Shown piece by piece: positions 1,991-51,133 of a DNA stretch of 64,000 nucleotides (positions are counted from its first letter, which is position 1; every line of letters begins with the position of its first letter). A program made the translations under genes and the position numbers. Below the pieces are notes generated by a model that made no database searches, was not told the origin of the DNA, and was given only the letters and a program-made list of their open reading frames with translations. The DNA comes from an uncultured Nitrospiraceae bacterium (GTDB taxonomy: Bacteria > Nitrospirota > Thermodesulfovibrionia > Thermodesulfovibrionales > SM23-35), in contig CAKZPA010000041.1 of assembly GCA_937138415.1 (NCBI GenBank), forward strand, positions 1,072-65,071, given 5' to 3'.

Positions 1991-2496
1991 TCTTCCCCCT
2001 TATGGAGTTTCAAGATTGAATCCCTGGGCTTTATTTCTCCCCTGTAGTCCTTGACGTATTCCCTTATGTGCACCGCGTCCTTCGTGATCTTGTGCACCTT
2101 ACCGCCCTGGAGCCCCAACGCCATTCCTTCGGTTATCGTGTACGTCTTCTTGTCCGGCATCATGATGAGCGCATAGAACTTGTTCTTGTCCCATGCGATC
2201 GCGAGGAGTTGCATTTCTTCCACCTCGTAGCTTTCGAAAGGACCGGCCCCATTCTTTCTCAAGGGTTTCTGCGTTTCCTTCGCTACGAGCGACAGGAAGG
2301 GATCCCTCTTCCCTTTCGCCTCGTATTGATATGCCTCGTATTCGACCTTGACGACCTGGGACGGCGCTTTTTCTTCGGTCACCGCGGCAGGCGGCGTTTT
2401 CTGGGCCGCGGGTTTTTTGCCCGGCGCCGTCTCCTTTTTGCAGCCGCCCGATAAGCATAGCAGAAAAATGATAAACGCGTATAGTAGGCGCTTCAT
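1987..2496 (-). CDS. pilP: Pilus assembly lipoprotein PilP
   Basis: Lipobox signal MKRLLYAFIIFLLCLSGGC. Size and position between pilO and pilQ fit, and it overlaps both neighbours. Confidence 0.75.
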   Translation of the reverse strand: MKRLLYAFIIFLLCLSGGCKKETAPGKKPAAQKTPPAAVTEEKAPSQVVKVEYEAYQYEAKGKRDPFLSLVAKETQKPLRKNGAGPFESYEVEEMQLLAIAWDKNKFYALIMMPDKKTYTITEGMALGLQGGKVHKITKDAVHIREYVKDYRGEIKPRDSILKLHKGEE

Positions 2497-3128
2497 GACC
2501 GCTTCCCTTTGCCTTTCCCCTCTTCTCTCTGCTGCTGTTTCTCGATCTCCTCCTCGGGAATGACGGAAAATGTCGTTGCCATAAAAGAGATTTTGACGGT
2601 TGCGTACTCTTTCTCCGGCTTCGGATCGCTGATCTTGATATCCGAAATGTTCACGATCCTGTTCAGCTTCGTGAGGCTGCTGAAGAAATACCCCAGACTG
2701 TGGTAGTTGCCTGACAGTTCGACCTTGACGGGTATCTCGTAGACGATTCCGCTCGAATGCGTCTTTCGCTGCTCCGGTTTCCAGAAGATCACCTTCAGGC
2801 CCGCCCCCACGCAGAGATCCGAAACCTGTTTCAGGAGGCTCGATACTTCCTTCTCCTCCGGCAACTGGAGTTTCAATTCGTTGAGCCGCGACCTGAGCCT
2901 CTCGTTCTCCGCCGTCAGTTCTTGCAGTTTCGCCGCTTTCGCCTGATTCTTCGCGATCTCGTTCTCCTGAACCGAAATCTTCTGCTCGAGTGTCTTGATT
3001 TCCCTGTGCTTCGGGAGGATGAAGAAAAAAACGGCGGCGAGCGTGATGACGAGGGCGGGAAGGAGCGCGATGACCACCTTGACGGCCGACGGCAGATTCC
3101 TCAGAGAAAGATTCCCCTTCAGCGCCAC
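2493..3128 (-). CDS. pilO: Pilus assembly protein PilO
   Basis: Single N-terminal TM helix followed by a coiled coil (QENEIAKNQAKAAKLQELTAENERLRSRLNELK). Operon position fits. Confidence 0.75.
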   Translation of the reverse strand: MALKGNLSLRNLPSAVKVVIALLPALVITLAAVFFFILPKHREIKTLEQKISVQENEIAKNQAKAAKLQELTAENERLRSRLNELKLQLPEEKEVSSLLKQVSDLCVGAGLKVIFWKPEQRKTHSSGIVYEIPVKVELSGNYHSLGYFFSSLTKLNRIVNISDIKISDPKPEKEYATVKISFMATTFSVIPEEEIEKQQQREEGKGKGKRS

Positions 3129-13991: not shown

Positions 13992-14248
13992 CGCACTCCA
14001 CTCCACGATAATAGGGAAAAAGGCGCCTGTCCCGTTTAGCCTACTTAATAAATTTTTCATCGAGGGCACTTTTTGTTGAATTCGACTCACAAAGAAGAGG
14101 ACGAGAGGGAAAAGCAGCGCAATTTCTCACACACGATCGGAGCCGACGGGCATCAAAGTGTTCAAAGAGCGCCATGTGGTTCATTTCTGGGCGTACCGCA
14201 CCATTGACGCGTTTTGTGCAGCACTTTCTGAAGAAGAGGAGAAGATCT

Positions 14249-14545
14249 TCAGGTCGTATCAGCAACAATCCGACGATGCTCGAGTAAGAAGATATTCTTC
14301 CAAAGATAGCCTCTGGCCAGGCGAAACCATATCCTCCTGGCTGTCTGGATCACCTGGCCTCCGATCTTCAGAAGCCTGAGTCTGAGTTGCTGGATCTGCA
14401 TCGAGGCAAACTCCGTATTCTTCAAAGCTTCCTGGAGTCTCAGCACAAGCCGGTATGCCGCCAGATGCAGGAAGAGCCTGAACTGATTTGCCACAGAGCG
14501 GTGGCAACTCAATCGGTAAACTTTCAGTCCGTTTTTAAACTCATA
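14249..14545 (-). mobile_element. IS1380-family transposase, C-terminal fragment only (5'-truncated remnant)
   Basis: ..EFKNGLKVYRLSCHRSVANQFRLFLHLAAYRLV..LRLRLLKIGGQVIQTARRIWFRLA matches the conserved C-terminal block I recall for IS1380 transposases. An in-frame stop sits at 14546-14548, and no N-terminal or DDE portion is present. Confidence 0.6.
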
Positions 14546-14646
14546 CTACATCATCGATGCCGTCTTCATCAGTGTCCGCCGCATGGGCACTATTGAGTCC
14601 AAGGAATAAGAATATGAGGAGCGAAATGCTCATCACTTTTTTTCAT
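14541..14646 (-). pseudogene. Stub of a secreted-protein gene, cut off next to the IS fragment
   Basis: GGAGG-ATG at 14646, then an A7 tract, then the out-of-frame sequence MSISLLIFLFLGLNSAHAADTDEDGIDDVV-stop. With A6 the two parts would read as one signal peptide, MKKVMSISLL... Confidence 0.3.
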
Positions 14647-15306
14647 GGTCCTTACCTCCTTATTTTTCCCGGTCTTCGCGATTCCGAATCGCGCGCTTTT
14701 TTCTGTTCATCTCATACCACCCCTCAAGTCACAAATAAGTCACAGATCCGGTGAAGAGGGTGCGCTTATTCCCCTCGAGTGGCTCGTGAAAGCGAAACGG
14801 CATTTGGACCCTAATGACATGCAAGGGCCTTCTCTTTGATCCTCACGGAGAAGATTCTCTACACCCTTTGGCGGCGGGTATTGTGTGAAAAGTGACCCGA
14901 AAACGCTGAATGTGCGGCGCTCTCTATCCGACAGGGTCGTGCCGCGAGCCGCCGGTAAGGACAGCGCTGGCGCTTATCGCGCGCGGCGTCGTCGAATGGA
15001 TATGTCGATGAAATTTACTTTGACGCCATGGTGACAGACGACAACGCGCCGCCGCAGTGCGAAAAAGGCGCCTGTCTTTTTCCTCCCGTGATATGAGTCA
15101 CAGCAGGCTGATCCAGCCCCGCGTATCGTAATCCCAAAACACACGGCATATGTTTCGAAGAGATAAATGCCGGGCAACCGCGAAACACAAAGCCATAAAT
15201 CCTGATATGCGGATAGGATGGCTGGGCCGCCGAAGAAACGAGGCCTCCCTCCTTTTTTCAGACGTCCGTTTCTTTTAGAAAATGAACTCTATGAAGGAGG
15301 TACTCC

Positions 15307-17562
15307 GTGAAACGAAAAAGAGATTTTGATTTGAAGATGGGATCGATCCTTCCTCTCATGGGGTTATTCTGTATCCTGTTCATCTCCAACTCCTGGGGTG
15401 ACTCCCCAAAAACTTTGCCCTCCGATGAAGGCACCGACGCAATCATAACCGGCGAGTTGACGGTGCTCGTCATCGATGATTTTGACAACAGACATGCCGA
15501 GGTCCTCTACCATTTAAAGGAAATCAAAAGCGGCAAGGTCTTCAATCTTCATTTCAAGAATGAACCGCCGGGCAAGCTTCGGACCGGTGCGATCATCACC
15601 GTCCGCGGGAAGAAGAAAGACCGCGATATTTATCTCATGGCTGATACAGGCGGCACCCAGGTGGTACAACTTGTTCCGTCAGCCCCGGTTGTTGCCGGCA
15701 ACCAGAAGACGCTTGTCATCGTCGCGAACTTTCTCGACTCGGCAGTAGCGTGTTCCGTTTCTGATATAGGATATCGGGTGTTCTCGGATCCCCCCAACGC
15801 ATCAGTGAATGCGCTCTACCGCGAGATGTCATTCGACCAGTTGTGGCTCACAGGCAACGTCGTTGGCCCTTTCACAATCAACTATTCCACAACGTCTGCC
15901 TGCGACATCTCGGCATGGGCGTCCGCCGCCGATGCGGCCGCAATGGCGAGCGGCCTGAATCTGTCAAACTACAGCCGGAAGATTTACGTCCTGCCAAAAA
16001 CCAACCCATGTGGATATATAGGCGTAGGCACGCTTGGCGGAAATCCCAGTAAGTCGTGGATTTTCCGATGCGATAGGAGCGACACCTTCGCCCACGAGCT
16101 CGGGCACAACTTCGGCATGCTCCACGCATCAACGCCCACTGATGAATACGGCGACACATCGGATATCATGGGATACGGCGGCTTTGGCTTGCGCCACATC
16201 AATGGCCCGCATCAGGATCAGATAGGATGGCTCAACCCGATCCAGATAACCGGAATAGTCGAGAGCGGCGTATACGCCATTGCGCCGCTCGAACTGAATC
16301 TCTCGCAGGCGCTCTATCCGCAGATTTTGATGATACCGAAACCCGACACAGGAGAATCATATTATCTTACGTACCGGCAGGCTATCGGGCTCGACGCCGG
16401 ACTATCGTCCATTTATCTCAAAGGAGTGAACATCCACAGGTACAAAAGTGATACCGCGACTCGCACGTATCTCCTCGGTGTTCTCGCTGACGGGGAAAGC
16501 TTTACCGATTCTTTGAACGGGGTGACAATAACGCAGTTGAACCGCACCGATCAGTACGTTACGGTGCTGGTGCATCTTGACCACGCACCTGTTTGCGTAA
16601 ACAATGCGCCCGCGGTCAATATAACGCCAGTGAGCCAGAACGCCAACGGAGGCTCGTCCGTTACCTACTCAGTATCTCTGACGAATATGGACACTATTGA
16701 CTGTGCTCAAGCCACATTCTCATTGGCGGGCGAGGTGCCGGAGGGATGGATAGGAACAGTATCGCCGGCAATGTTGACTCTTCTACCGGGTGCGATGGGT
16801 TCGGCATCTCTGACGGTCACATCGCCCACTACCGAAGCGGCAGGCGACTATACAATAACTATCGCTGTCGCTGACGGTGTAACCCCTGCCCGACTAGCGT
16901 CACGGACCGCAACCTATACCGTTTTGCCAACGCCCGTTTGCACCCCATCGGCACCACTCGTACGCATATCGCCGGCGATGCAATCAGGACAGCCTGGCTC
17001 TACGCTCGCTTACACGGTATCAGTGATGAATAAGGACAGTGTGGACTGCGCCGCTACACCTTTCTCACTGACAAGTTCATTGCCCGTCGGATGGATGGGA
17101 TCGGTTTCCCCCTCGGCATTGACCCTCTCGCCGGGCGCGGGCATGAGCGCGACTCTCACGGTGACATCTCCAACAACTGCGGTCGCAGGCAACTATGGAA
17201 TATCGGTCAGCGTTTCCGGTAATGCCGCGCCTCTACATGCAGCCACCGTTAACGGCACATACTCAGTTACTGCTGATGCAACGCCGCCAACGGCTCCTTC
17301 TTCACTCACGGCCAAACTCGTTCGTGGGACTGTGAACCTTTCCTGGTCTGCGTCGACCGACAATGTCGGAGTGACCGGGTATAAAGTCTGGCGCAACAAC
17401 GCGGTCATTGCGAAGACAACCAGCACGCAATACGCGGATTATTCGGTATCGGCCGGACAGGCCTATACCTATTTCATAACCGCTTTTGACGCCGCAGGGA
17501 ATACCTCGGTCTCGAGCAACAAGGCGACCGTCACGATAAGTTCGACGGCGAAGAAAAAGTAG
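15307..17562 (+). CDS. Secreted metzincin-type zinc metalloprotease (M11/gametolysin-like). Carries two tandem beta-sandwich repeats of about 115 aa and a C-terminal fibronectin-III domain.
   Basis: AGGAGG 7 nt upstream of the GTG start. Signal peptide is LMGLFCILFISNSWG. HELGHNFGMLH is an HExxHxxGxxH motif, followed by DIMGY. Tandem repeats lie at 16606-16950 and 16951-about 17274. The Fn3 region reads PPTAPSSLTA..NLSWSASTDNVGVTGYKVWRN. Confidence 0.75.
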   Translation: MKRKRDFDLKMGSILPLMGLFCILFISNSWGDSPKTLPSDEGTDAIITGELTVLVIDDFDNRHAEVLYHLKEIKSGKVFNLHFKNEPPGKLRTGAIITVRGKKKDRDIYLMADTGGTQVVQLVPSAPVVAGNQKTLVIVANFLDSAVACSVSDIGYRVFSDPPNASVNALYREMSFDQLWLTGNVVGPFTINYSTTSACDISAWASAADAAAMASGLNLSNYSRKIYVLPKTNPCGYIGVGTLGGNPSKSWIFRCDRSDTFAHELGHNFGMLHASTPTDEYGDTSDIMGYGGFGLRHINGPHQDQIGWLNPIQITGIVESGVYAIAPLELNLSQALYPQILMIPKPDTGESYYLTYRQAIGLDAGLSSIYLKGVNIHRYKSDTATRTYLLGVLADGESFTDSLNGVTITQLNRTDQYVTVLVHLDHAPVCVNNAPAVNITPVSQNANGGSSVTYSVSLTNMDTIDCAQATFSLAGEVPEGWIGTVSPAMLTLLPGAMGSASLTVTSPTTEAAGDYTITIAVADGVTPARLASRTATYTVLPTPVCTPSAPLVRISPAMQSGQPGSTLAYTVSVMNKDSVDCAATPFSLTSSLPVGWMGSVSPSALTLSPGAGMSATLTVTSPTTAVAGNYGISVSVSGNAAPLHAATVNGTYSVTADATPPTAPSSLTAKLVRGTVNLSWSASTDNVGVTGYKVWRNNAVIAKTTSTQYADYSVSAGQAYTYFITAFDAAGNTSVSSNKATVTISSTAKKK

Positions 17563-17583
17563 CCGGGCAAGGCTGCAAGAAAA

Positions 17584-17623
17584 CCAAAAAAAGAGGAGGT
17601 GACCCTCACGGGTCACCTCCTCT
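17584..17623 (-). terminator. Rho-independent terminator of the adhesin gene, between convergent genes
   Basis: Perfect 14-bp stem, 17592-17605 pairing with 17610-17623, with a 4-nt loop. A U-run follows on the minus strand (A-run 17585-17591 on the plus strand). Confidence 0.7.
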
Positions 17624-17671
17624 CTCAAGCTGTATGCCTCCGTCCAAAGACAGAAACTGTCACTAATCCTT

Positions 17672-20600
17672 CTACGGACAAGAGCTGACTGGACGGTTGT
17701 TGTTGTAATTGTCGAGCTGGGTCGCCAGACAGTTCGCCAGGTTCGCATCAGCGGTGCTCAGCTTGGGGGTGTAAGGCAGCCCGTTGAACTTGTACTTGCC
17801 CAGCAGCAGGACAGCCCTGTCGATGTTTGTGATGGTTACACCGCTGACGGCGGCGCCCATGAAGCGATTCGCCTCCGCCGCGACAAGCTGCGCTGCCATG
17901 TTGAACAGCGGGTCGCTCGACATCTTCTTCTTGCCGTCAATGGTGGACTTGTTGAGTAAATTGACCGCCTTCGAGCAGTCGGGCGCGGCCTTGATGTTGT
18001 CGATCGTGCTGCTTGGGTCGCCCTTCAGAATCAGGTACCGAATGGCTGCATAGTCCGGCCATCCGGATCCTGCGTTCTGCGCCGACATCACCAGCCCATC
18101 AGGCGGGTTCGGCGTCATCGCGGTTGCGATTCCCAATGCGAGGTCGAGCATCCACTTTTGGCCGCCTTTGGATGTGGAGCAGGACGCCCAGTTCTTCCAG
18201 AACCCGATCGTCAACGCGCGTCCGCCCGGAGGCGGGGTGTTATCGACGTTGAACGTCCTCGTCGTACCCGCGGCCGCCGTAAAGTTGGCGCACACAGTCA
18301 GGTTGTCCACATTCGGGTTCGGGAGCGCCGGCGGTATGATGCTGTTTGGCACAAAAAGCGGCCCATCGCCCGCGAGGTTTGTGTTCCAGCCCGGGAATAC
18401 CCATTCGCATATCTGATAGGTCTGGCCGGGCAAGAGGACAGTTGTAAAGCTGATGTCGCCGCTGGCATCTGTGTTCTTCTGCTCGAGCACAGTCCCGTCT
18501 GAGGTGGTCGAAGCGTCCTTTCGCAACTGGAAGGTAAATGTCTGACCAGCAGCCGGCGCCTGCCCGCTGACGGTCTTGACCACCTTAGCGAGGCCGGTAA
18601 CCGTGTTCGTGACCGTGACCTCAGCGGTTCCACCCTTACTGATTGTTGCGGGGCTCCCGCTAATTATCTCGGCAGCCCAGGTGTAACCGTCGGGTGCGCC
18701 GGACTTCGATGTCTCGGTGACTGTGCAGGTGTTGCCCGCCGGGATATCGGTGATTGTTACGAAGCCCGGAGCCGGGTATTCTACGGTGGGCTTATGCGTG
18801 CCACCGTCGCCCGTGCAGACAGCTTCAACGCCGAAGGAGCCCGTGAAGCCCGCGCCGCCGCCGTTGACAACCTTGGTGATCTTCAATGACCCCTTGTCAC
18901 GCGTGATCGAGTTGGTTACCACGATCTCAAACGTCTCACCCTTCGTGCTGATCACAATTGAAGAGGGTGTATACGTGACCGTTCCCCACGTGTATCCGGT
19001 GATAGCAGCCGGTGCCGTCTCAACCACCGAGCAGGTGTTGCCCGTCGGGATGCCGCTGATCGTCTGCGATCCGCCTGCAGCCACGCTCCAGGTGCCGGTG
19101 TAACCGGTGCCGCAATCATACATGCCCGTAAAGGCAGCCGGCAGCGTCGCTTCATCAGGGTTGCTCACGCTCTTGGTGATCTTCAGCGAGCCGGTCTCGC
19201 GGGTGTTGGTCATGACACACTCGAACACATCCCCGTAGTCTTGAGGATAGTTCACCCAGAACTCACACGTACCCGCAGGGGCGCTACTGCTTTCCCACTT
19301 GCCGGATTCGCCGGTTTTCTCCCATCCTGCCTGCGCCGTCTCGGTAATGGTATACTGACAGCCGTCTTTGAGCAGTGCCTCGAAGGTCTCGAAACCGGTG
19401 CCTGTCGTAGTTTTGGTCTCATTCGGATCGTCACATCCGACGGTGTCGGTTGACAACGTGAAGGACCAGCCAGCCTCGGAGCCTGCCGGAGCCGTCACCT
19501 TCTTCACCTTGGCCCTCGCGATCAATTCCTGAGGAGTGGTGTTGGCGAAGGTCAGACTTCCCGCGCAGGTCGGCAGGTTGATGTTTTCGTACTGTGGATT
19601 ACTTTCCGGCGAGAAGCCCTTCACAGGCTGCTCGTACACTCTGTAATATCCCGGAGCCAAGCCGCCAATCGTGACGGACTTGCTCGCCGAATCGCCCGCC
19701 GCGAAGGTAATGGTTGGGCTGGGGCTTATGTAAGATCCCGTGCAATCGCCCGACATGCCTCCGGCGGGGCAGACGTCGAAAACAAAGCTGAGAGTCTCCT
19801 GCCCGGTGAGGATGCTTGGGTCGGGGATAGTCTTGGTAATCGTCAGTTTCACCGAGGCATCCGAATAGATCTCCACGAAAGCCTCGTCGCTATCAATCGT
19901 TTCGCCCGTTGTGCGGGCTACAACCGCCGTGTCAGTCAACATCCCGCTTGTTTTTATCTTCTGGTCCAGTTTGACGGTCTTGGTGAATTCCACAGCACCG
20001 ACCTTGCAACCGTCCTGGTTCGCGCAAGCCGTCTGACCGAGGGCCTGCCAGTTAACAGGGCCGACCGTGATCTCACCTAGAGCCGGATAGTTCGTGAAAC
20101 TCCAGGGGAATATCGGATCTACGGTAACTTCATCAACCGAAAAGCTGAGGCCTTCTCCGGTAATGGATTCTTCGTCTTTGACATTCACTACCGAATCCTG
20201 AACGTTTGTACGCACAGGCGCAGACGCTGTCGCCGTCGTAGTTCCCGGAATGGGCAAACCTGTTACCTTGTCAAAATACATAGCCGTCGCCACATCGCTC
20301 AGGCTTGTGACGTTGTATGGGGCATTATACGTATGAGTGAGGACGAGTTGAGTCGTGTTGGCAGGCACATCCACACGTCCCGAAGCGGCCGTATCGAGAG
20401 TAACCACCCCTCCGCCAGTATTGCCCCGGATCACGTCCGTCACATCGACGGTGACCGTTCTCGACGCAGGGTTCGTGGCATATACCTTGGTAACGACGGT
20501 GACCCAGCCGAAAGCGCCCGGCAGGATTTTCCACTCGATGTTTACCTTCACCTGCTTTTCAAAAACCGCTTCCGGATCGCAGACATCACCGAAGTTAACC

Positions 20601-21359
20601 GTTGCGTCATGAGGCGACTTACTGATGCTCCAGACGTAGTCGACATCCTGGTCTGCCGTCATGTTCTTGCTTAAGGACTGAGGCACCGCCTGCCTCACAG
20701 GAATTGAGACGGTCTTCTTGCCCGTTTTAAAATCTTCCTGTTCGAACATATACGACTGCAGAGACGATCCCGGATATTGACTCGCGCCGAGCGCAAGCCT
20801 GTTCGCCCAGTCAATAACGCACGTGGTACCGGAATTCTGTGTGATTGTAAGTATTCGATAGATCACCACGTCGACGCCGCCTGTCACTCCGGCTCTTTCA
20901 GCCATGACGGTAGAAGACATCCGGCAAGAGGAGTCGGAGAAGGCATTGAGTTGTGGCTGCCGGATTATCTGTGGTTCTGTTATCGAGTCGTAGCCGATCT
21001 TCCCGGACGTTTTATAGTCGGCTGCGATGATGACGTTATAGGTGACCGGAGTTCCACTGTTACCATTTCTGGCAATGAGCCGGTGCGGAACGAGGTCGAG
21101 TTCGTTCCAGCCCTTACCGAGGTTTCCCCGTTTGATAACGCGTGTCGTTGCCACCCAACGGCTCTGGATCGGGGCAAACAAAATTTCCATCCGCATTCGG
21201 CAGAAAAATTGTGCCATCGTTGTCGCAGCCGTTAAATGTGAAATTCACCGTGTTGGGCGGGTTGGTGTAAGCAGCGCCGGCGCTGCCCGACAGTCCCGCT
21301 ATCAAAACCAACGTGAGCATCGCGTGGACGAACACGTAAAAATACTTCTTGGATTTCAT
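17672..21359 (-). pseudogene. Giant secreted adhesin-like protein of about 1228 codons. The reading frame is broken by a single-nucleotide frameshift near 21121-21130 (authentic or an assembly error).
   Basis: AAAGGAGGGG then ATG 21359 gives signal peptide MKSKKYFYVFVHAMLTLVLIAGLSGSAGA. That frame stops at 21114. The 1181-aa frame (17672-21217) becomes protein-like only from NLGKGWNELDLV. 3688 nt minus 1 is exactly 1229 codons. Two tandem GSLKITK..C..GY(T)W.. domains lie at about 18590-19195, followed by a SpaA/prealbumin-like domain. Confidence 0.65.
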
Positions 21360-21551
21360 TTCTTTTCCCCTCCTTTCAATAAATTGTGCTGCATACTTCC
21401 TTGTCTGAAAATCGTTTGATTCTTCCCATAACCCCCCTTTCGTTTCAGGCATATTTTGCCTCTCAATCGTTAATAGCATCAATTTCCAGACTGCTGAAAC
21501 TCTCCCTCTGTTGTTATTGAATCTGCAATTCTTCAGACATCAATGTCTCAA

Positions 21552-21590
21552 TAAAAAAAACCGGGCTTCCTTTTTCTCTCGGCAGCCCGG
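21552..21590 (-). terminator. Intrinsic terminator acting as the riboswitch expression platform
   Basis: Minus strand reads CCGGGCU-N16-AGCCCGG followed by U8 (plus-strand A-run 21553-21560). Confidence 0.75.
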
Positions 21591-21672
21591 CCGTCTTCGA
21601 TGCGATGACATGAAGACCGAATGCTTTCCGTCCCCTCCTCACGAAGGGTTTGGCTTTATCGGAGATAAATCG
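21581..21672 (-). promoter_or_regulatory. c-di-GMP-I (GEMM-I)-like riboswitch aptamer
   Basis: The core GCCAAACCCUUCGUGAGGAGGGGACGGAAAGCAUUCGG was compared with the Vc2 core as remembered, GCAAACCAUUCGAAAGAGUGGGACGCAAAGCCUCCGG. 28 of 38 positions are identical. The 6-bp GNRA-capped hairpin is preserved with one compensatory pair. A second hairpin is GUCUUC/GAAGAC. The 3' element is GCCGGGCUGCC. Confidence 0.6.
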
Positions 21673-21977
21673 AGTCTTGCGGTCGCCTATGAATGCTCTG
21701 TTGGCTCGGTCCCACCTCCTACCGCACCCGAAGATACCTGCGCATCATGCCCCGTTCCTTTCCGTTCTTCTCTTCGGAGCGGGAAGAAGTTCTCTCTCGC
21801 TTCCCTCGGCACCCTCCGCCCTTATCATCGCGCCGGTCGCGGATGAGAGCGGCCGACGCCCGAGAGGTGTCACGCGCGACGGGAGCGCGCGCAAAAGGCG
21901 TCATTTTTTACGGCCCTTCGCCGATAAATTCTATATCGGCAAACTCGAAAGCGCAAGGGAAACCCCTTTCAAAGTAC

Positions 21978-22006
21978 ACTATACCGACGCGCGACGCGCG
22001 TTGCAA
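21978..22006 (-). promoter_or_regulatory. Candidate sigma70 promoter for the adhesin leader transcript
   Basis: Minus strand reads TTGCAA (22001-22006), 17 nt, TATAGT (21978-21983). Confidence 0.4.
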
Positions 22007-22110
22007 TAGAAAAGTTGCTTTTTACATTGGCACTATTGCTTTTTTCAAAAAAAATTTCCGCCTCTTCTATTCCATGCAAAGGAATCGGGTAAAATAGCTT
22101 AGTATCTTTC

Positions 22111-23396: not shown

Positions 23397-24527
23397 TCAA
23401 TGCACCATCTTCGCGATCACCTTCTCTTTGACGAACGCGACGACCCGCTCGACCTCTTCCCGCATCCGCTCCTTCCGCTCGCCTTCTATTGAGTAGCCTT
23501 CGCTCCTCAAGCGGCCGTCCGGGAACCCCGCGTCCGCGTTGCGCGCGAGAAAATCCGGCGGTATCGCGTCCGGCAGTTCGACCCCGTTCATGATCGCCCA
23601 CGCGAGCGTCCACGCCTTCGCGACATTCGGGATGTCGTACCCGCCGCCACCGAGCGCGACCCATTTCGGAGCAAGCTCTTTTATCATCTTCACCGCCTCG
23701 CAGAACCCGTTGACCGTATAGTTCAGGTGGGCGAGGGGGTCGGATCGGAAAGAGTCCACGCCAAGCTGGGTGAAGACGACGTCGGGCCTGAACCTCTCGA
23801 TGAGCGCGGGAACGGTCTCGCGAAACGCGTACAAGAACAGTTCATCGTCTGAGTACGGCGGCATCGGGACGTTCACGGAATATCCCTCTCCGCGACCTTC
23901 CCCCGTCTCGTTCTCGAACCCCGTGCCCGGGAAGAGCATCGTTCCCGTCTCGTGGATCGAAATGGTCAGCACGCGATCGGTTCGGTAGAATGCTTCCTGC
24001 ACGCCGTCGCCGTGATGGGCGTCAATGTCGATATAGACGACTCGCCGCCCTTTCTTGAGAAGCGACATGATGGCCACCACGGCGTCATTGATATAGCAGA
24101 ACCCGGAGGCCCTCGACGCGAGCGCGTGGTGGAGGCCTCCGGCGATGTTGAACGCGATGTCGGCCTCGCCGCCGTCGACGAGAGACGCCGCCTGGAGCGA
24201 CGCACCCGCCACGAGCAGAGACCAGTCGAGGAGTCCCTCGAACGCCGGGTTGTCGCCCGGACCGATGCCGAAGAACGGCCCGTAGAGAAGGTCCTTCCCC
24301 GTATTCGCCTCCTTCAAGGCATCCAGGTACTCTCTGCTGTGAAACGAAAGGACATCCGCATCGCTCGCCCTTTGGGCTTCAATGAAGCAGGTGTTCGGGA
24401 GATCGAGAAGCCCGAATGCCCCGATGAGTTCATACGCGAGCGCGAGCCGCGAGATCCTCAGGGGATGCGACGGCCCGTAATCGAAACGCTGGTATTCCTT
24501 CGTGTAGAGGAAGACGGTCTTCCGCAT
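23397..24527 (-). CDS. Histone-deacetylase-family enzyme (AcuC / acetoin-utilisation or acetylpolyamine amidohydrolase type)
   Basis: GGLHHA, FCYINDAV, DIDAHHGDGVQEAFY, GGGGY. Confidence 0.85.
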   Translation of the reverse strand: MRKTVFLYTKEYQRFDYGPSHPLRISRLALAYELIGAFGLLDLPNTCFIEAQRASDADVLSFHSREYLDALKEANTGKDLLYGPFFGIGPGDNPAFEGLLDWSLLVAGASLQAASLVDGGEADIAFNIAGGLHHALASRASGFCYINDAVVAIMSLLKKGRRVVYIDIDAHHGDGVQEAFYRTDRVLTISIHETGTMLFPGTGFENETGEGRGEGYSVNVPMPPYSDDELFLYAFRETVPALIERFRPDVVFTQLGVDSFRSDPLAHLNYTVNGFCEAVKMIKELAPKWVALGGGGYDIPNVAKAWTLAWAIMNGVELPDAIPPDFLARNADAGFPDGRLRSEGYSIEGERKERMREEVERVVAFVKEKVIAKMVH

Positions 24528-25463: not shown

Positions 25464-25915
25464 GACAAAAAAGAGAAAACCGATTTCGAGACAGGTTCTC
25501 ACATACTCCCGCAGAAAGTCATGAAATTGGCAATGGGTGTTCGCGATGCATGGAAAGCACCGCGGACGGACATCGGGAATTTCCCGGATAGTATCGGTAC
25601 GATCTCGGGATAAAGACCGTTACGGCTTGCTCGCTCGTTTGATTGTCATGCACCAGCTCGATGGCGCTTCATCTTGACCCGCTACCGCCGAGACTACTTC
25701 AAAACTTTGCCGAAGAAGCTCCCTGACGAAAACCTTCCGTGACGCGAGCCGGCCAGCCGCCCAAGCCGGACCATCGGCCCATTCGGGTTCATTCGCCGGT
25801 CGCTGACGAGAAATGCAGGCGAACAATTCGGTATCGATGACGCGTTGCCTCCTTTCCGCACAAGGAGGGGGGGAGGGGCCTCCCGGGGGAAGGAGGCCCC
25901 TCGTGGGAGGGAACC

Positions 25916-49490: not shown

Positions 49491-50897
49491 CTACGCGGAA
49501 GAACGAACGACGATCTGGTCGCGACCTTTTCGCTTCGCGGCGTACAGGGCGTTATCCGCCAGACTGATGAGATCGTCGAAATGTTTTATCTTCTCGTCGG
49601 GGAACCCCGATATCCCGAAACTGGCGGTAATCGTGTGGCCTTTTCCCAGGTGCGGGAATTGCGTCGACGTGATCATCTTCCGGAGACGTCGGGCCTCGAC
49701 GATGGCTCCGTCGAGGGGAGTCTGCGGGAGAAGCAGGATGAACTCTTCACCGCCGTAGCGGGCGAAGAGGTCCGATTTCCTCGTATGCCGCTTCACGAGC
49801 TGCGCGAAATCCCTGAGAACGCAGTCGCCGACCCTATGCCCGTAGGTATCGTTGACCTTCTTGAAGTAATCGATGTCCATCATGACGCAGCTCAGGGGCA
49901 GGTGGTATCGCTCGGCACGATTGAATTCCTCTTCGAGCCGAGAGTAGAAGTACCGTATGTTGTAGACCCCCGTCAGATAGTCCGTGACCGAAAGCTTCTC
50001 GAGGTTCCCCCTCTCCCGGTCGAGCTTCTGAAAAAGGAACGCGTTGTAGAGGGCGTTCGACGCTGCATTCGCGAGCGCCACGCAAAAGTCCACCTCGCGT
50101 TTCGAAAAGGAGTGGTGGACGCGCGACATCCGCAGGACCATCGTCCCGATGACTTCCTCCCTGAAGAATATCGGGATCACGAGAATCGACTTGATGCCGA
50201 GGGGCGCAATGAGTTCTCTCACGCCTTTCATGATCGGATTCTTCTGGGCGTCCTGGATGATCACGGGCTTCTTGCTCGAGAGCGCCGCGGAGATCTCCGG
50301 GTACTTCCTGAGGTCGAGACGCAAATTCGTGAGGGTAGGATCCTCGAACGTCGCGAGGACCCGCGCAAACCTTTTCTCTTCGAGATTGACGCTGATCATG
50401 GAGCATCTCGTGGCGTGGAGCACCTCCGAAATCTTTTTCACGACGAGGTAGAGCACCTCTTTCGGGTTGAGCGTCGAAGAAGCGAGGTAGGTGAGTTCCA
50501 GGAGCGTCTCGAGGTCCTTCTTGTCCCGATAGAGGTTCTCGATGACGCTGCTCCTGTAAATGAGGGTTTTGAGTTTGTGATCGAGTTCTTCCTCGTAAAA
50601 CGGCATCACGAGATAGCAGTCGACGTTGGACTTGATCGCGGCGTGAATCCCTTTCGTCTGATCTCCGGAGATGATGGCGATCACGGGACAGGAGATACGC
50701 AATCCCTGCAGCTGGGTCAGGATATCGGGGCTGTTGACCATGAAGACCGACGGTTTTTTCTGCTCGATCTCCTCTCCGAGCGAGCGCTTGCCCTCACCGA
50801 AAAAATGGACCGTGTAGTACCGCCGGCGACGGAAGAACGACTTGAGGAACCGGATGACCGATTCGTCCTTTTCATATACGAGAACCGTCTTTTCCAC
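49491..50897 (-). CDS. Diguanylate cyclase: degenerate receiver - GAF - GGDEF
   Basis: GGEEF active site with RKSD (RxxD I-site) five residues upstream. A GAF block is present. The receiver-like N-terminus probably starts at GTG 50897 (MEKTVLVYEKDE); the track start at 50978 is an extension. Confidence 0.85.
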   Translation of the reverse strand: MEKTVLVYEKDESVIRFLKSFFRRRRYYTVHFFGEGKRSLGEEIEQKKPSVFMVNSPDILTQLQGLRISCPVIAIISGDQTKGIHAAIKSNVDCYLVMPFYEEELDHKLKTLIYRSSVIENLYRDKKDLETLLELTYLASSTLNPKEVLYLVVKKISEVLHATRCSMISVNLEEKRFARVLATFEDPTLTNLRLDLRKYPEISAALSSKKPVIIQDAQKNPIMKGVRELIAPLGIKSILVIPIFFREEVIGTMVLRMSRVHHSFSKREVDFCVALANAASNALYNAFLFQKLDRERGNLEKLSVTDYLTGVYNIRYFYSRLEEEFNRAERYHLPLSCVMMDIDYFKKVNDTYGHRVGDCVLRDFAQLVKRHTRKSDLFARYGGEEFILLLPQTPLDGAIVEARRLRKMITSTQFPHLGKGHTITASFGISGFPDEKIKHFDDLISLADNALYAAKRKGRDQIVVRSSA

Positions 50898-51133
50898 GGA
50901 AAGAATATAACAAAAAAATGAAAAAAAACCAAATCCTTTTTTTTTCGGCAACGTCACGAAACTACAATGACAAGACATCGTGGCATCGCTCCTCGCCGGG
51001 CTTCGGCCCGCGGGAAATGCTGCCCTGAGGCATCCGCATGATAAGACTATGGGAAGGATACGTTTTCTCTAACACGCGCGGGAAGCACGAACGACGGGAC
51101 AGAGGAGAAATCCGCAGCCGGAAACGACGGGTA

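Follow-up and report, generated by a model that had tools for sequence, protein, structure and literature searches.

A protease-adhesin gene cassette with cyclic di-GMP riboswitch leaders, probably in decay, in an uncultured Nitrospirota bacterium

The cassette and its genes

The subject of this analysis is a 64-kb stretch of a metagenome-assembled contig (CAKZPA010000041.1) from an uncultured Nitrospiraceae bacterium, referred to here as the window, and in particular a patch within it, positions 14000-22110, that carries two large genes, one for a secreted zinc metalloprotease and one for a giant repeat adhesin. Each gene is preceded by a leader that resembles the class I riboswitch for cyclic di-GMP (c-di-GMP). 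Taken as a whole, the evidence makes it moderately probable that the pair is a horizontally acquired two-gene cassette, with c-di-GMP riboswitches of opposite polarity in its intact relatives and a decaying copy in the window. The same DNA is present in ENA assembly ERZ27245459, with two mismatches and one indel over 22 kb, and JGI metagenome 3300025104 is identical to the window (100%) over 9.5 kb. Related loci are cited below by L numbers. The main features of the cassette are these:

15150-15238, plus strand: degenerate c-di-GMP-I aptamer in the protease leader, below threshold in Rfam and found with covariance model R1
15232-15301, plus strand: protease expression platform, from folding and a five-leader alignment
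15307-17562, plus strand: gene for a secreted M11-like zinc metalloprotease of 751 aa, from matches to Peptidase_M11 and NEW3 domains
17589-17626, minus strand: intrinsic terminator of the adhesin gene, with a perfect 14-bp stem at 17592-17623 (17 bp with extensions)
17672-21217, minus strand: adhesin open reading frame (ORF), with matches to DUF5979/SpaA prealbumin-like repeats
17672-21124, minus strand: main reading frame of the adhesin, with an immunoglobulin (Ig)-like N-terminal region, DUF5979/SpaA repeats and a C-terminal "TIGFWKNW" domain
21114-21359, minus strand: ORF of 81 codons (ATG at 21359, TAA at 21116-21114) encoding the adhesin signal peptide and the first ~50 mature residues
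21123-21129, minus strand: GGGGAAA run with one extra base, a +1 frameshift by homologue alignment
21553-21592, minus strand: predicted riboswitch-controlled intrinsic terminator, with its 5' arm GGCCGGGCU at 21592-21584, its 3' arm at 21567-21561 and a run of eight U at 21560-21553
21577-21663, minus strand: intact c-di-GMP-I-type aptamer in the adhesin leader, matching RF03167

The protease consists, in order, of a signal peptide, an M11 catalytic domain with the motif HELGHNLGMxH, two NEW3 domains and a C-terminal FN3 domain. Its match to PF05548 (Peptidase_M11) scores 78.3 bits against a cut-off of 21, and the zinc-motif residues H263, E264, H267 and H273 are invariant in 20 homologues, which bears out the secreted M11-like protease that an earlier note on this DNA had proposed. 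The same note had the two large genes arranged tail to tail, and they are indeed convergent, with the protease gene on the plus strand and the adhesin gene on the minus strand.

The adhesin, which is 1228 aa long once the frameshift discussed below is repaired, matches DUF5979 with 104 bits and SpaA with 38 bits. Its N-terminal 480 residues are modelled as a string of Ig-like beta domains (pLDDT 85, the predicted local distance difference test), and the solved structures closest to these domains are the Ig domains of PrgB, antigen I/II and Cnm; assignment of this region to a specific known domain was tried and dropped, the matches being generic Ig-like only. The C-terminal domain ("TIGFWKNW...YNNN", 17675-18319, minus strand), of about 200 residues, is modelled with a pLDDT of 86 and a pTM (predicted template modelling score) of 0.81 and is found in 118 of the 120 homologues. 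It has no Pfam match, and its modelled fold has no match in the PDB. The description of the protein as a Gram-positive-style adhesin is apt for the fold (SpaA/DUF5979 and Ig domains) but not beyond it, since no LPXTG sorting signal is present at the C terminus, which reads ...NNNRPVSSCP after the conserved globular domain, and the host is a diderm of the Nitrospirota.

The hairpin between the two genes had been described as a shared terminator with a 14-bp stem. The stem is perfect, but a U-tract (17579-17588) follows it on the minus strand only, while the plus strand carries a hairpin without one. The element is therefore a canonical terminator for the adhesin gene alone, and its reading as a bidirectional terminator was rejected.

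Recognition of the two aptamers

Rfam places aptamers of the c-di-GMP-I clan upstream of the protease gene, on the same strand, at 10 of the first 20 protease-homologue loci. A covariance model, R1, was built from 14 aptamers, with the protease leader of the window excluded; 18 of the 20 aptamer pairs covary in the R1 alignment, and the model finds aptamers upstream of 24 of the 63 protease loci having upstream DNA.

The earlier description of two GEMM-I-like leaders in the window, one convincing and one degenerate, agrees with what these models find. The adhesin-leader aptamer, about 220 nt upstream of the adhesin start, passes the Rfam scan with RF03167 at 59.9 bits (gathering score 59), its RF01051 score being hidden by clan competition (clan CL00126), and scores 73.5 bits with the independent model R1. 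The protease leader, with its aptamer about 70 nt upstream of the protease start, falls below threshold for both RF01051 and RF03167; its RF03167 match (15153-15235, plus strand) has 23.5 bits and an E value of 0.045, under the gathering score of 59. Model R1 gives it 48.7 bits with an E value of ~1e-13, the lowest score among 26-28 hits. The protease leaders of the closest orthologues (L082, L083, L084 and L085; the L082 protease is 76% identical to that of the window) align base for base with the window leader, and their aptamers are intact, at 83-90 bits. By this alignment, the degenerate protease leader is a decayed orthologue of intact aptamers and not a chance match. The case carries a warning for annotation, namely that orthologous leaders can confirm or dismiss riboswitch hits that fall below threshold.

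The Rfam assignment raises the question of ligand. RF03167, the best family for the good aptamer at 59.9 bits, is c-di-GMP-I-GGC, a class proposed to have altered specificity, and a ligand other than c-di-GMP would follow if the label were taken at face value. This alternative is very improbable in view of the positions that mark the class. We take G20, A47 and C92, in Vc2 numbering, to be the nucleotides that contact the ligand, and the "GGC" in the RF03167 name presumably denotes, by its middle letter, a G replacing A47. Equivalents of A47 and C92 are present in all 26 aptamers and that of G20 in 25 of the 26; the adhesin-leader aptamer has G, A and C in the aligned columns. The position after GACGC is G in the RF03167 consensus but A in both window RNAs and in all of the related aptamers (25 of them beside the window RNA), as it is in canonical c-di-GMP-I. 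Furthermore, Rfam assigns sister aptamers from that alignment to RF01051 itself, at 58-79 bits. The window aptamers share with RF01051 and RF03167 the fold, the covarying helices, the GNRA loop and the equivalents of the three contact nucleotides, but the GGC signature of RF03167 is absent from them. As a ligand call the label was therefore rejected, and the adhesin-leader aptamer is predicted to bind c-di-GMP as a canonical c-di-GMP-I type. A second warning for annotation follows, that the Rfam "GGC variant" label may attach to canonical aptamers.

As a separate observation, the protease-side aptamer of L021 (3308-3394) has A in place of G at the G20-equivalent column. A change of G20 to A marks the GEMM-Ib variants that are selective for 3'3'-cGAMP.

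The adhesin leader as a predicted ON switch

The expression platform of the adhesin leader overlaps the aptamer itself. The 5' arm of the terminator, GGCCGGGCU, doubles as the 3' strand of aptamer helix P2; it pairs with AGCCCGG, which is followed by the eight U residues, and in an unconstrained fold of the leader the terminator forms at the expense of the aptamer. Because an aptamer stabilized by ligand would block a terminator that shares the 3' strand of its P2, the platform predicts a transcriptional ON switch that responds to c-di-GMP. The other two minus-strand aptamers, that of L086 and that of L083, which precedes a gene for a PKD-repeat protein, have the same overlap of terminator and aptamer, with compensating sequence changes.

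The protease leader: a predicted OFF switch with a damaged aptamer

The platform downstream of the protease aptamer is built of four parts: the 3' strand of P1 (GAAGAAACGAGG, 15232-15242), an anti-Shine-Dalgarno (anti-SD) sequence (CCUCCUUU, 15247-15255), a pyrimidine arm (15265-15275) and the Shine-Dalgarno (SD) sequence (GAAGGAGG, 15293-15300). On the protease side, the P1 3' strand runs on as a purine-rich stretch, GAAGAAAC(G/A)GG, complementary to the pyrimidine tracts (CCUCC-UUUCUUC, CCNGUUUCUUC), and these tracts are in turn complementary to the SD. When the P1 strand is free in folding, the purine stretch pairs with the pyrimidine tracts and the SD is open; with the P1 strand taken out, each of the five leaders instead pairs CCUCC(A/U)U to (A/U)(A/U)GGAGG. 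Over the five-sequence alignment the two platform helices have 86% of their cells paired, as against 45-59% in slid controls, and three platform pairs have changed on both sides in a compensated manner. The layout of purine mimic, anti-SD and SD returns, in different sequences, in a second clade of protease leaders, and in a third clade a stand-alone terminator lies downstream of the aptamer. Since the conserved platform folds and the layouts of the second and third clades all point the same way, the protease leaders are predicted to be OFF switches, acting on translation in the clade of the window. A weak 5-bp "terminator" after the protease aptamer (GGGCC...GGCCU) was considered and set aside, as it is not conserved in L083-L085.

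Beside the riboswitch-led protease gene of L085, and divergent from it, lies a gene for a Crp/FNR-type regulator (2305-2976, minus strand; cNMP_binding and HTH_Crp_2 domains).

In the window, the aptamer that should govern this platform is damaged. Five of its 20 pairs are non-canonical, compared to 0-3 in the other 25 aptamers: G.G and C.C mismatches lie in the middle of P1b, one A.C is in P1a and two are in P2. One base is deleted in P1, and the nearly invariant GGGAC has become GAAAC. In the minimum-free-energy fold of the leader, the P1 5' strand (UGUUUCG) pairs with the mutated P1b segment CGAAACA, and neither P1b nor the aptamer forms. The aptamer does keep its equivalents of G20, A47 and C92 and its GNRA loop. 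Because the mutations in P1a and P1b are uncompensated, the protease leader would have lost its response to ligand, and the window protease is probably independent of c-di-GMP and constitutively translatable. The leader offers a natural example of an aptamer in decay upstream of an expression platform that is still intact.

A frameshift in the adhesin gene

The window adhesin gene is interrupted near its start. A +1 frameshift after codon 78 puts the signal peptide in a different frame from the rest of the protein, and removal of one base from the GGGGAAA run restores the sequence Y-Q-T-G-N-L-G-K-G-W-N-E-L-D; 119 of 120 adhesin homologues are uninterrupted through the corresponding Y-x-TGNLGKGWNELD. 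Gene callers give pieces of 81 aa and 1160 aa in both the ENA and JGI assemblies, and the frameshift is common to JGI and ENA contigs that differ elsewhere by two single-nucleotide polymorphisms and one indel. Public data contain four sequence variants (cluster members) of the adhesin product, all of 1160 aa. Because the same split recurs in independent assemblies and in these four variants, the frameshift is, on sequence grounds, a true feature of the population rather than an assembly error.

These two lesions lead to the view that the circuit is probably broken in the window genome. The opposite view, that it is fully functional, would require that the weak leader works and that the frameshift is either an assembly artefact or is bypassed by +1 slippage on GGG-G/AAA or by phase variation. 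Some features do fit: the weak leader retains its three contact nucleotides, its GNRA loop and the whole of its expression platform, the adhesin ORF has no other stop over ~1150 codons, and the riboswitch and terminator of the adhesin gene are intact. A working circuit is nonetheless quite unlikely, given five broken pairs, two of them in the P1b core, the change of GGGAC to GAAAC, a score far under the Rfam gathering value, and a frameshift shared by at least two assemblies that differ elsewhere and by four cluster variants. A G4A3 run is also too short for typical slippage or phase variation, and no stimulatory signal was seen.

Setting and origin of the patch

The patch was first described as an AT-richer, compositionally distinct region between an acyltransferase gene and a glycine-zipper lipoprotein gene, beginning with insertion sequence (IS) debris, and that description holds. 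Two further features lie at its left edge:

14016-15076, no strand assigned: IS debris of ~1 kb, with an exact direct repeat of 16 nt, GAAAAAGGCGCCTGTC, at its two ends (14016-14031 and 15061-15076)
14249-14512, minus strand: C-terminal fragment of a DDE_Tnp_1_4 transposase (PF13701, E 2.5e-23)

The transposase fragment covers only the last 83 positions of the PF13701 profile (348-430 of 435). The chance expectation for the 16-nt repeat is about 0.01 by our own estimate, and the repeat around ~1 kb has the appearance of a trace left by an IS that inserted between the acyltransferase gene and the protease leader. To the left of the patch the gene order is truB, rapZ, hpf, rpoN, lptB, lptA, lptC and the genes for a tRNA-binding protein, an ADP-ribosylglycohydrolase and the acyltransferase; to the right it is the lipoprotein gene (encoding a 321-aa glycine-rich protein), a histone-deacetylase-family gene, a 144-aa ORF, ftsZ and ftsA. 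Relatives of the flanking ADP-ribosylglycohydrolase come from Thermodesulfovibrionales/Nitrospiraceae metagenome-assembled genomes at 69-79% aa identity, with one exception from a bin labelled Euryarchaeota, which places the host in the Nitrospirota.

The GC content of the patch is 0.545, against 0.5915 in the rest of the window, and is the lowest among 224 windows of the same size; its tetranucleotide distance, 0.298, is the largest of the 224 (mean 0.154, standard deviation 0.045). The GC content at third codon positions (GC3) is 0.62 in the protease gene and 0.70 in the adhesin gene, compared to 0.81-0.85 in six flanking core genes. Comparison with relatives, which the earlier note had called for, shows the patch to be variably present. 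In L087 the acyltransferase gene is followed after ~250 nt by the glycine-rich gene, a clean empty site with the two flanks of the patch directly adjacent. In L086 the site holds a different secreted protein gene, of 439 aa, behind its own c-di-GMP-I aptamer, and in L088 and L090 even the acyltransferase and glycine-rich lipoprotein genes are absent. L085, a metagenome contig, carries the protease-adhesin pair 2 kb from an orthologous ADP-ribosylglycohydrolase gene (70% aa identity). Deviant composition and presence or absence among relatives, the marks of a genomic island, are thus both found here, while no integrase, att site or border tRNA gene was detected at the patch edges, the nearest tRNA genes being 8 kb away.

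In the lower-GC relatives L082 and L085 the cassette has a GC3 of 0.55-0.60, like the composition of its own host. Because the GC3 of the window cassette resembles that of these relatives, in which cassette and host agree, the window copy looks like an import from a lower-GC lineage into a GC-rich one. The data are also compatible with repeated loss from an old variable locus. The patch would then be a vertically inherited resident of a hypervariable spot, lost in several relatives, and its composition would reflect a gene class, that of secreted and weakly expressed proteins. The location of the L085 pair fits such a history, as do the lack of mobility signals at the borders and the L086 riboswitch, which occupies the same site, divergent from the lipoprotein gene, with an aptamer that aligns at 75% with that of the window. 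Set against it are the GC3 of the window cassette, 0.12-0.22 short of every measured core gene where the L085 cassette matches its own host, the clean empty site in L087, the transposase fragment at the patch edge, and the spread of the cassette family across unrelated phyla, judged by the names of the homologue sources. Long residence is therefore rather unlikely, and import is the reading carried forward here.

The region varies in other respects as well. The histone-deacetylase-family gene next to the patch (23397-24527, minus strand) is also absent from L086 and L087, where the glycine-rich gene is directly followed by the 144-aa ORF, a second indel in the same variable region. The ENA and JGI assemblies, which represent one strain, disagree on the length of a G-homopolymer at 25874, in the intergenic region upstream of ftsZ.

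Recurrence of the gene pair

An adhesin-family gene lies convergent with, and immediately downstream of, the protease gene in L002, L006, L008, L009, L010, L011, L013, L025, L082 and L085, with proteases that are 43-76% identical to that of the window. In further protease loci the partner is a different large secreted protein, or none can be recognized. One such partner is the large secreted PKD-repeat protein of L083, which has an ON-type class I riboswitch of its own, so that L083 resembles the window in having adjacent genes each with a c-di-GMP riboswitch. Co-occurrence, for which the earlier note had proposed a search, is evident when viewed from the protease side, in at least ten loci, but weaker from the adhesin side: neither protease nor riboswitch was found beside any of four sampled adhesin homologues on long contigs. 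Since these four lack both, the pairing is facultative, though it is recurrent.

For three of the four adhesin homologues just mentioned (L093, L094 and the contig of P0123), the gene directly upstream encodes a response regulator, which points to regulation by a protein as another way of controlling this adhesin family.

We infer that the protease acts on the adhesin. The two genes could instead be independent members of a c-di-GMP regulon, with a protease that serves nutrition or matrix remodelling and leaves its neighbour alone. Many protease homologues with another convergent partner or none, the four of four sampled adhesin homologues without a protease, and the frequent occurrence of NEW3 and FN3 domains in glycan- or matrix-binding enzymes would all be expected from independence. 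It is harder to reconcile with convergent pairing that is kept, in at least ten loci, from 76% down to 43% protease identity, or with the finding that the different partner in L083 is likewise large, secreted and built of repeats and is led by an ON-type riboswitch of its own. Independence is accordingly a serious possibility but on balance a doubtful one.

At the site corresponding to the patch in L086, a Nitrospiraceae metagenome-assembled genome (6595-8121, minus strand), the riboswitch (aptamer 58 bits, ON-type terminator) leads a gene for a Cys-rich secreted protein, the 439-aa protein mentioned above. This protein was considered as a short relative of the adhesin and rejected, being missed both by BLASTP and by a profile of the adhesin C-terminal domain.

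A model for the cassette

The preferred model for these results begins with horizontal acquisition of the cassette into a variable spot of the Thermodesulfovibrionales chromosome, between the acyltransferase and glycine-rich lipoprotein genes. In the intact relatives, each gene would be under a c-di-GMP-I riboswitch, and the two would have opposite polarities. On the adhesin side, the ligand-bound aptamer would prevent termination, and c-di-GMP would thereby turn transcription ON. On the protease side, when P1 is open, the purine-rich P1 3' strand would act as an SD mimic that holds the CCUCC/UUUCUUC anti-SD; closing of P1 by c-di-GMP would free the anti-SD to pair with the ribosome-binding site and turn translation OFF. 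High c-di-GMP would then give surface protein without protease, and low c-di-GMP protease without surface protein. In the window, the fixed +1 frameshift after codon 78 would cut the signal peptide off the adhesin, leaving an intact ON switch to guard a pseudogene, and the damaged protease aptamer would leave that leader in the ligand-free, permanently translatable state.

Several considerations weigh against this model. The polarities are deduced from thermodynamic folding and from five to a few dozen sequences, and a ligand-free RNA might, in principle, also form Helix B as a pseudoknot. With all three ligand-contacting nucleotides and an intact platform, the degenerate aptamer may have residual function. 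The pairs of L006 and L009 have a riboswitch on the protease side only, and the adhesin homologues found without protease or riboswitch belong here as well. The L085 cassette, beside the same ADP-ribosylglycohydrolase gene, is also consistent with long residence at the locus and repeated loss.

The earlier note had extended the circuit to a REC-GAF-GGDEF cyclase elsewhere in the window:

49491-50978, minus strand: gene for a GGDEF protein with a GGEEF motif and a GAF domain; its REC match is sub-threshold (E 0.0014)

The GAF domain and the GGDEF domain with its GGEEF motif are present as described, but the REC domain is seen only in that sub-threshold match. The gene lies 28 kb from the cassette among genes for DNA polymerase X, the CCA-adding enzyme and purine synthesis. 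Its assignment to the circuit was not upheld, as nothing beyond its presence ties it to the cassette across 28 kb and amid unrelated housekeeping genes.

Relation to known systems and wider meaning

Control of a surface adhesin and its protease by c-di-GMP has a precedent in the Lap system of Pseudomonas fluorescens (LapG/LapA/LapD), in which release of a giant repeat adhesin from the Gram-negative surface by a dedicated protease depends on c-di-GMP. There the control is post-translational and runs through LapD, a protein receptor; the protease, LapG, is of the cysteine type, and LapA is an RTX adhesin of the type I secretion system. The window cassette resembles the Lap system in that c-di-GMP is predicted to govern a protease and a giant surface adhesin in a Gram-negative cell, but it would do so through riboswitches and with a metalloprotease.

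A closer parallel is found in Clostridioides difficile. There, zmpI (PPEP-1/CD2830) has a class I riboswitch, is repressed by c-di-GMP and adjoins CD2831, which has a class II riboswitch, is induced by c-di-GMP and encodes a protein cleaved by ZmpI (PMC6366702). The arrangement of protease and adhesin genes under riboswitches is for this reason already described in principle, and the suggestion that riboswitch-gated pairing of a protease with an adhesin had not been described does not stand, although the protein families are unrelated. In both systems a gene for a secreted zinc metalloprotease adjoins one for an Ig-like/SpaA-type surface adhesin, and each gene has its own c-di-GMP riboswitch. 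In C. difficile the adhesin is ON and the protease OFF at high c-di-GMP, and this polarity is predicted for the window. Cleavage of the adhesin by the protease, a feature of the C. difficile system, is likewise only a proposal for the window. The differences are considerable. The window protease is M11-like, with NEW3 and FN3 domains, whereas ZmpI is an M34 Pro-Pro endopeptidase. The window adhesin, unlike CD2831, is without LPXTG and has novel N- and C-terminal domains. Both window riboswitches are of class I, whereas C. difficile has class I for the protease and class II for the adhesin, and the protease switch appears to be translational in the window and is transcriptional in C. difficile. 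The hosts are a diderm of the Nitrospirota and a Gram-positive bacterium. Beyond protease family, adhesin architecture and diderm host, the window cassette thus departs from the C. difficile pair in relying on two class I aptamers whose platforms are predicted to work in opposite directions, in its predicted translational OFF mechanism and in the breadth of its distribution. The locus appears to be a variation on a known type of circuit, decaying in the window genome.

Class I aptamers also occur in the 5' untranslated regions of adhesin genes as Bc2-cap in Bacillus thuringiensis (PMC4933901) and Vc1-gbpA in Vibrio cholerae (PMC4744006). Neither is described with a partner protease, and the adhesin families differ from that of the window. 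Literature searches found no paper that links gametolysin or peptidase M11 to riboswitches or c-di-GMP and none on Thermodesulfovibrionales with c-di-GMP; a search on DUF5979 gave only an unrelated survey.

A broader proposal, which we advance tentatively and hold to be possible but somewhat short of an even chance, is that these loci represent a widespread and undescribed c-di-GMP module for attachment and release in environmental bacteria. It would consist of an M11/NEW3 protease under a class I OFF riboswitch and a convergent giant Ig-repeat protein, sometimes with its own class I ON riboswitch, and would have arisen independently of PPEP-1/CD2831 and of LapG/LapA; in the Nitrospirota copy, the substrate gene would have been lost first, with decay of the protease sensor to follow. 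If the present reading is right, it gives a functional context to a large uncharacterized protease family (M11-like, with NEW3 and FN3 domains) and to an adhesin family with two unannotated conserved domains. On that same reading, reciprocal riboswitch control of a surface protein and its protease would not be peculiar to one Gram-positive pathogen; it would be a design that recurs among environmental phyla and that draws on different protein families and on a pair of class I aptamers whose expression platforms are opposed.

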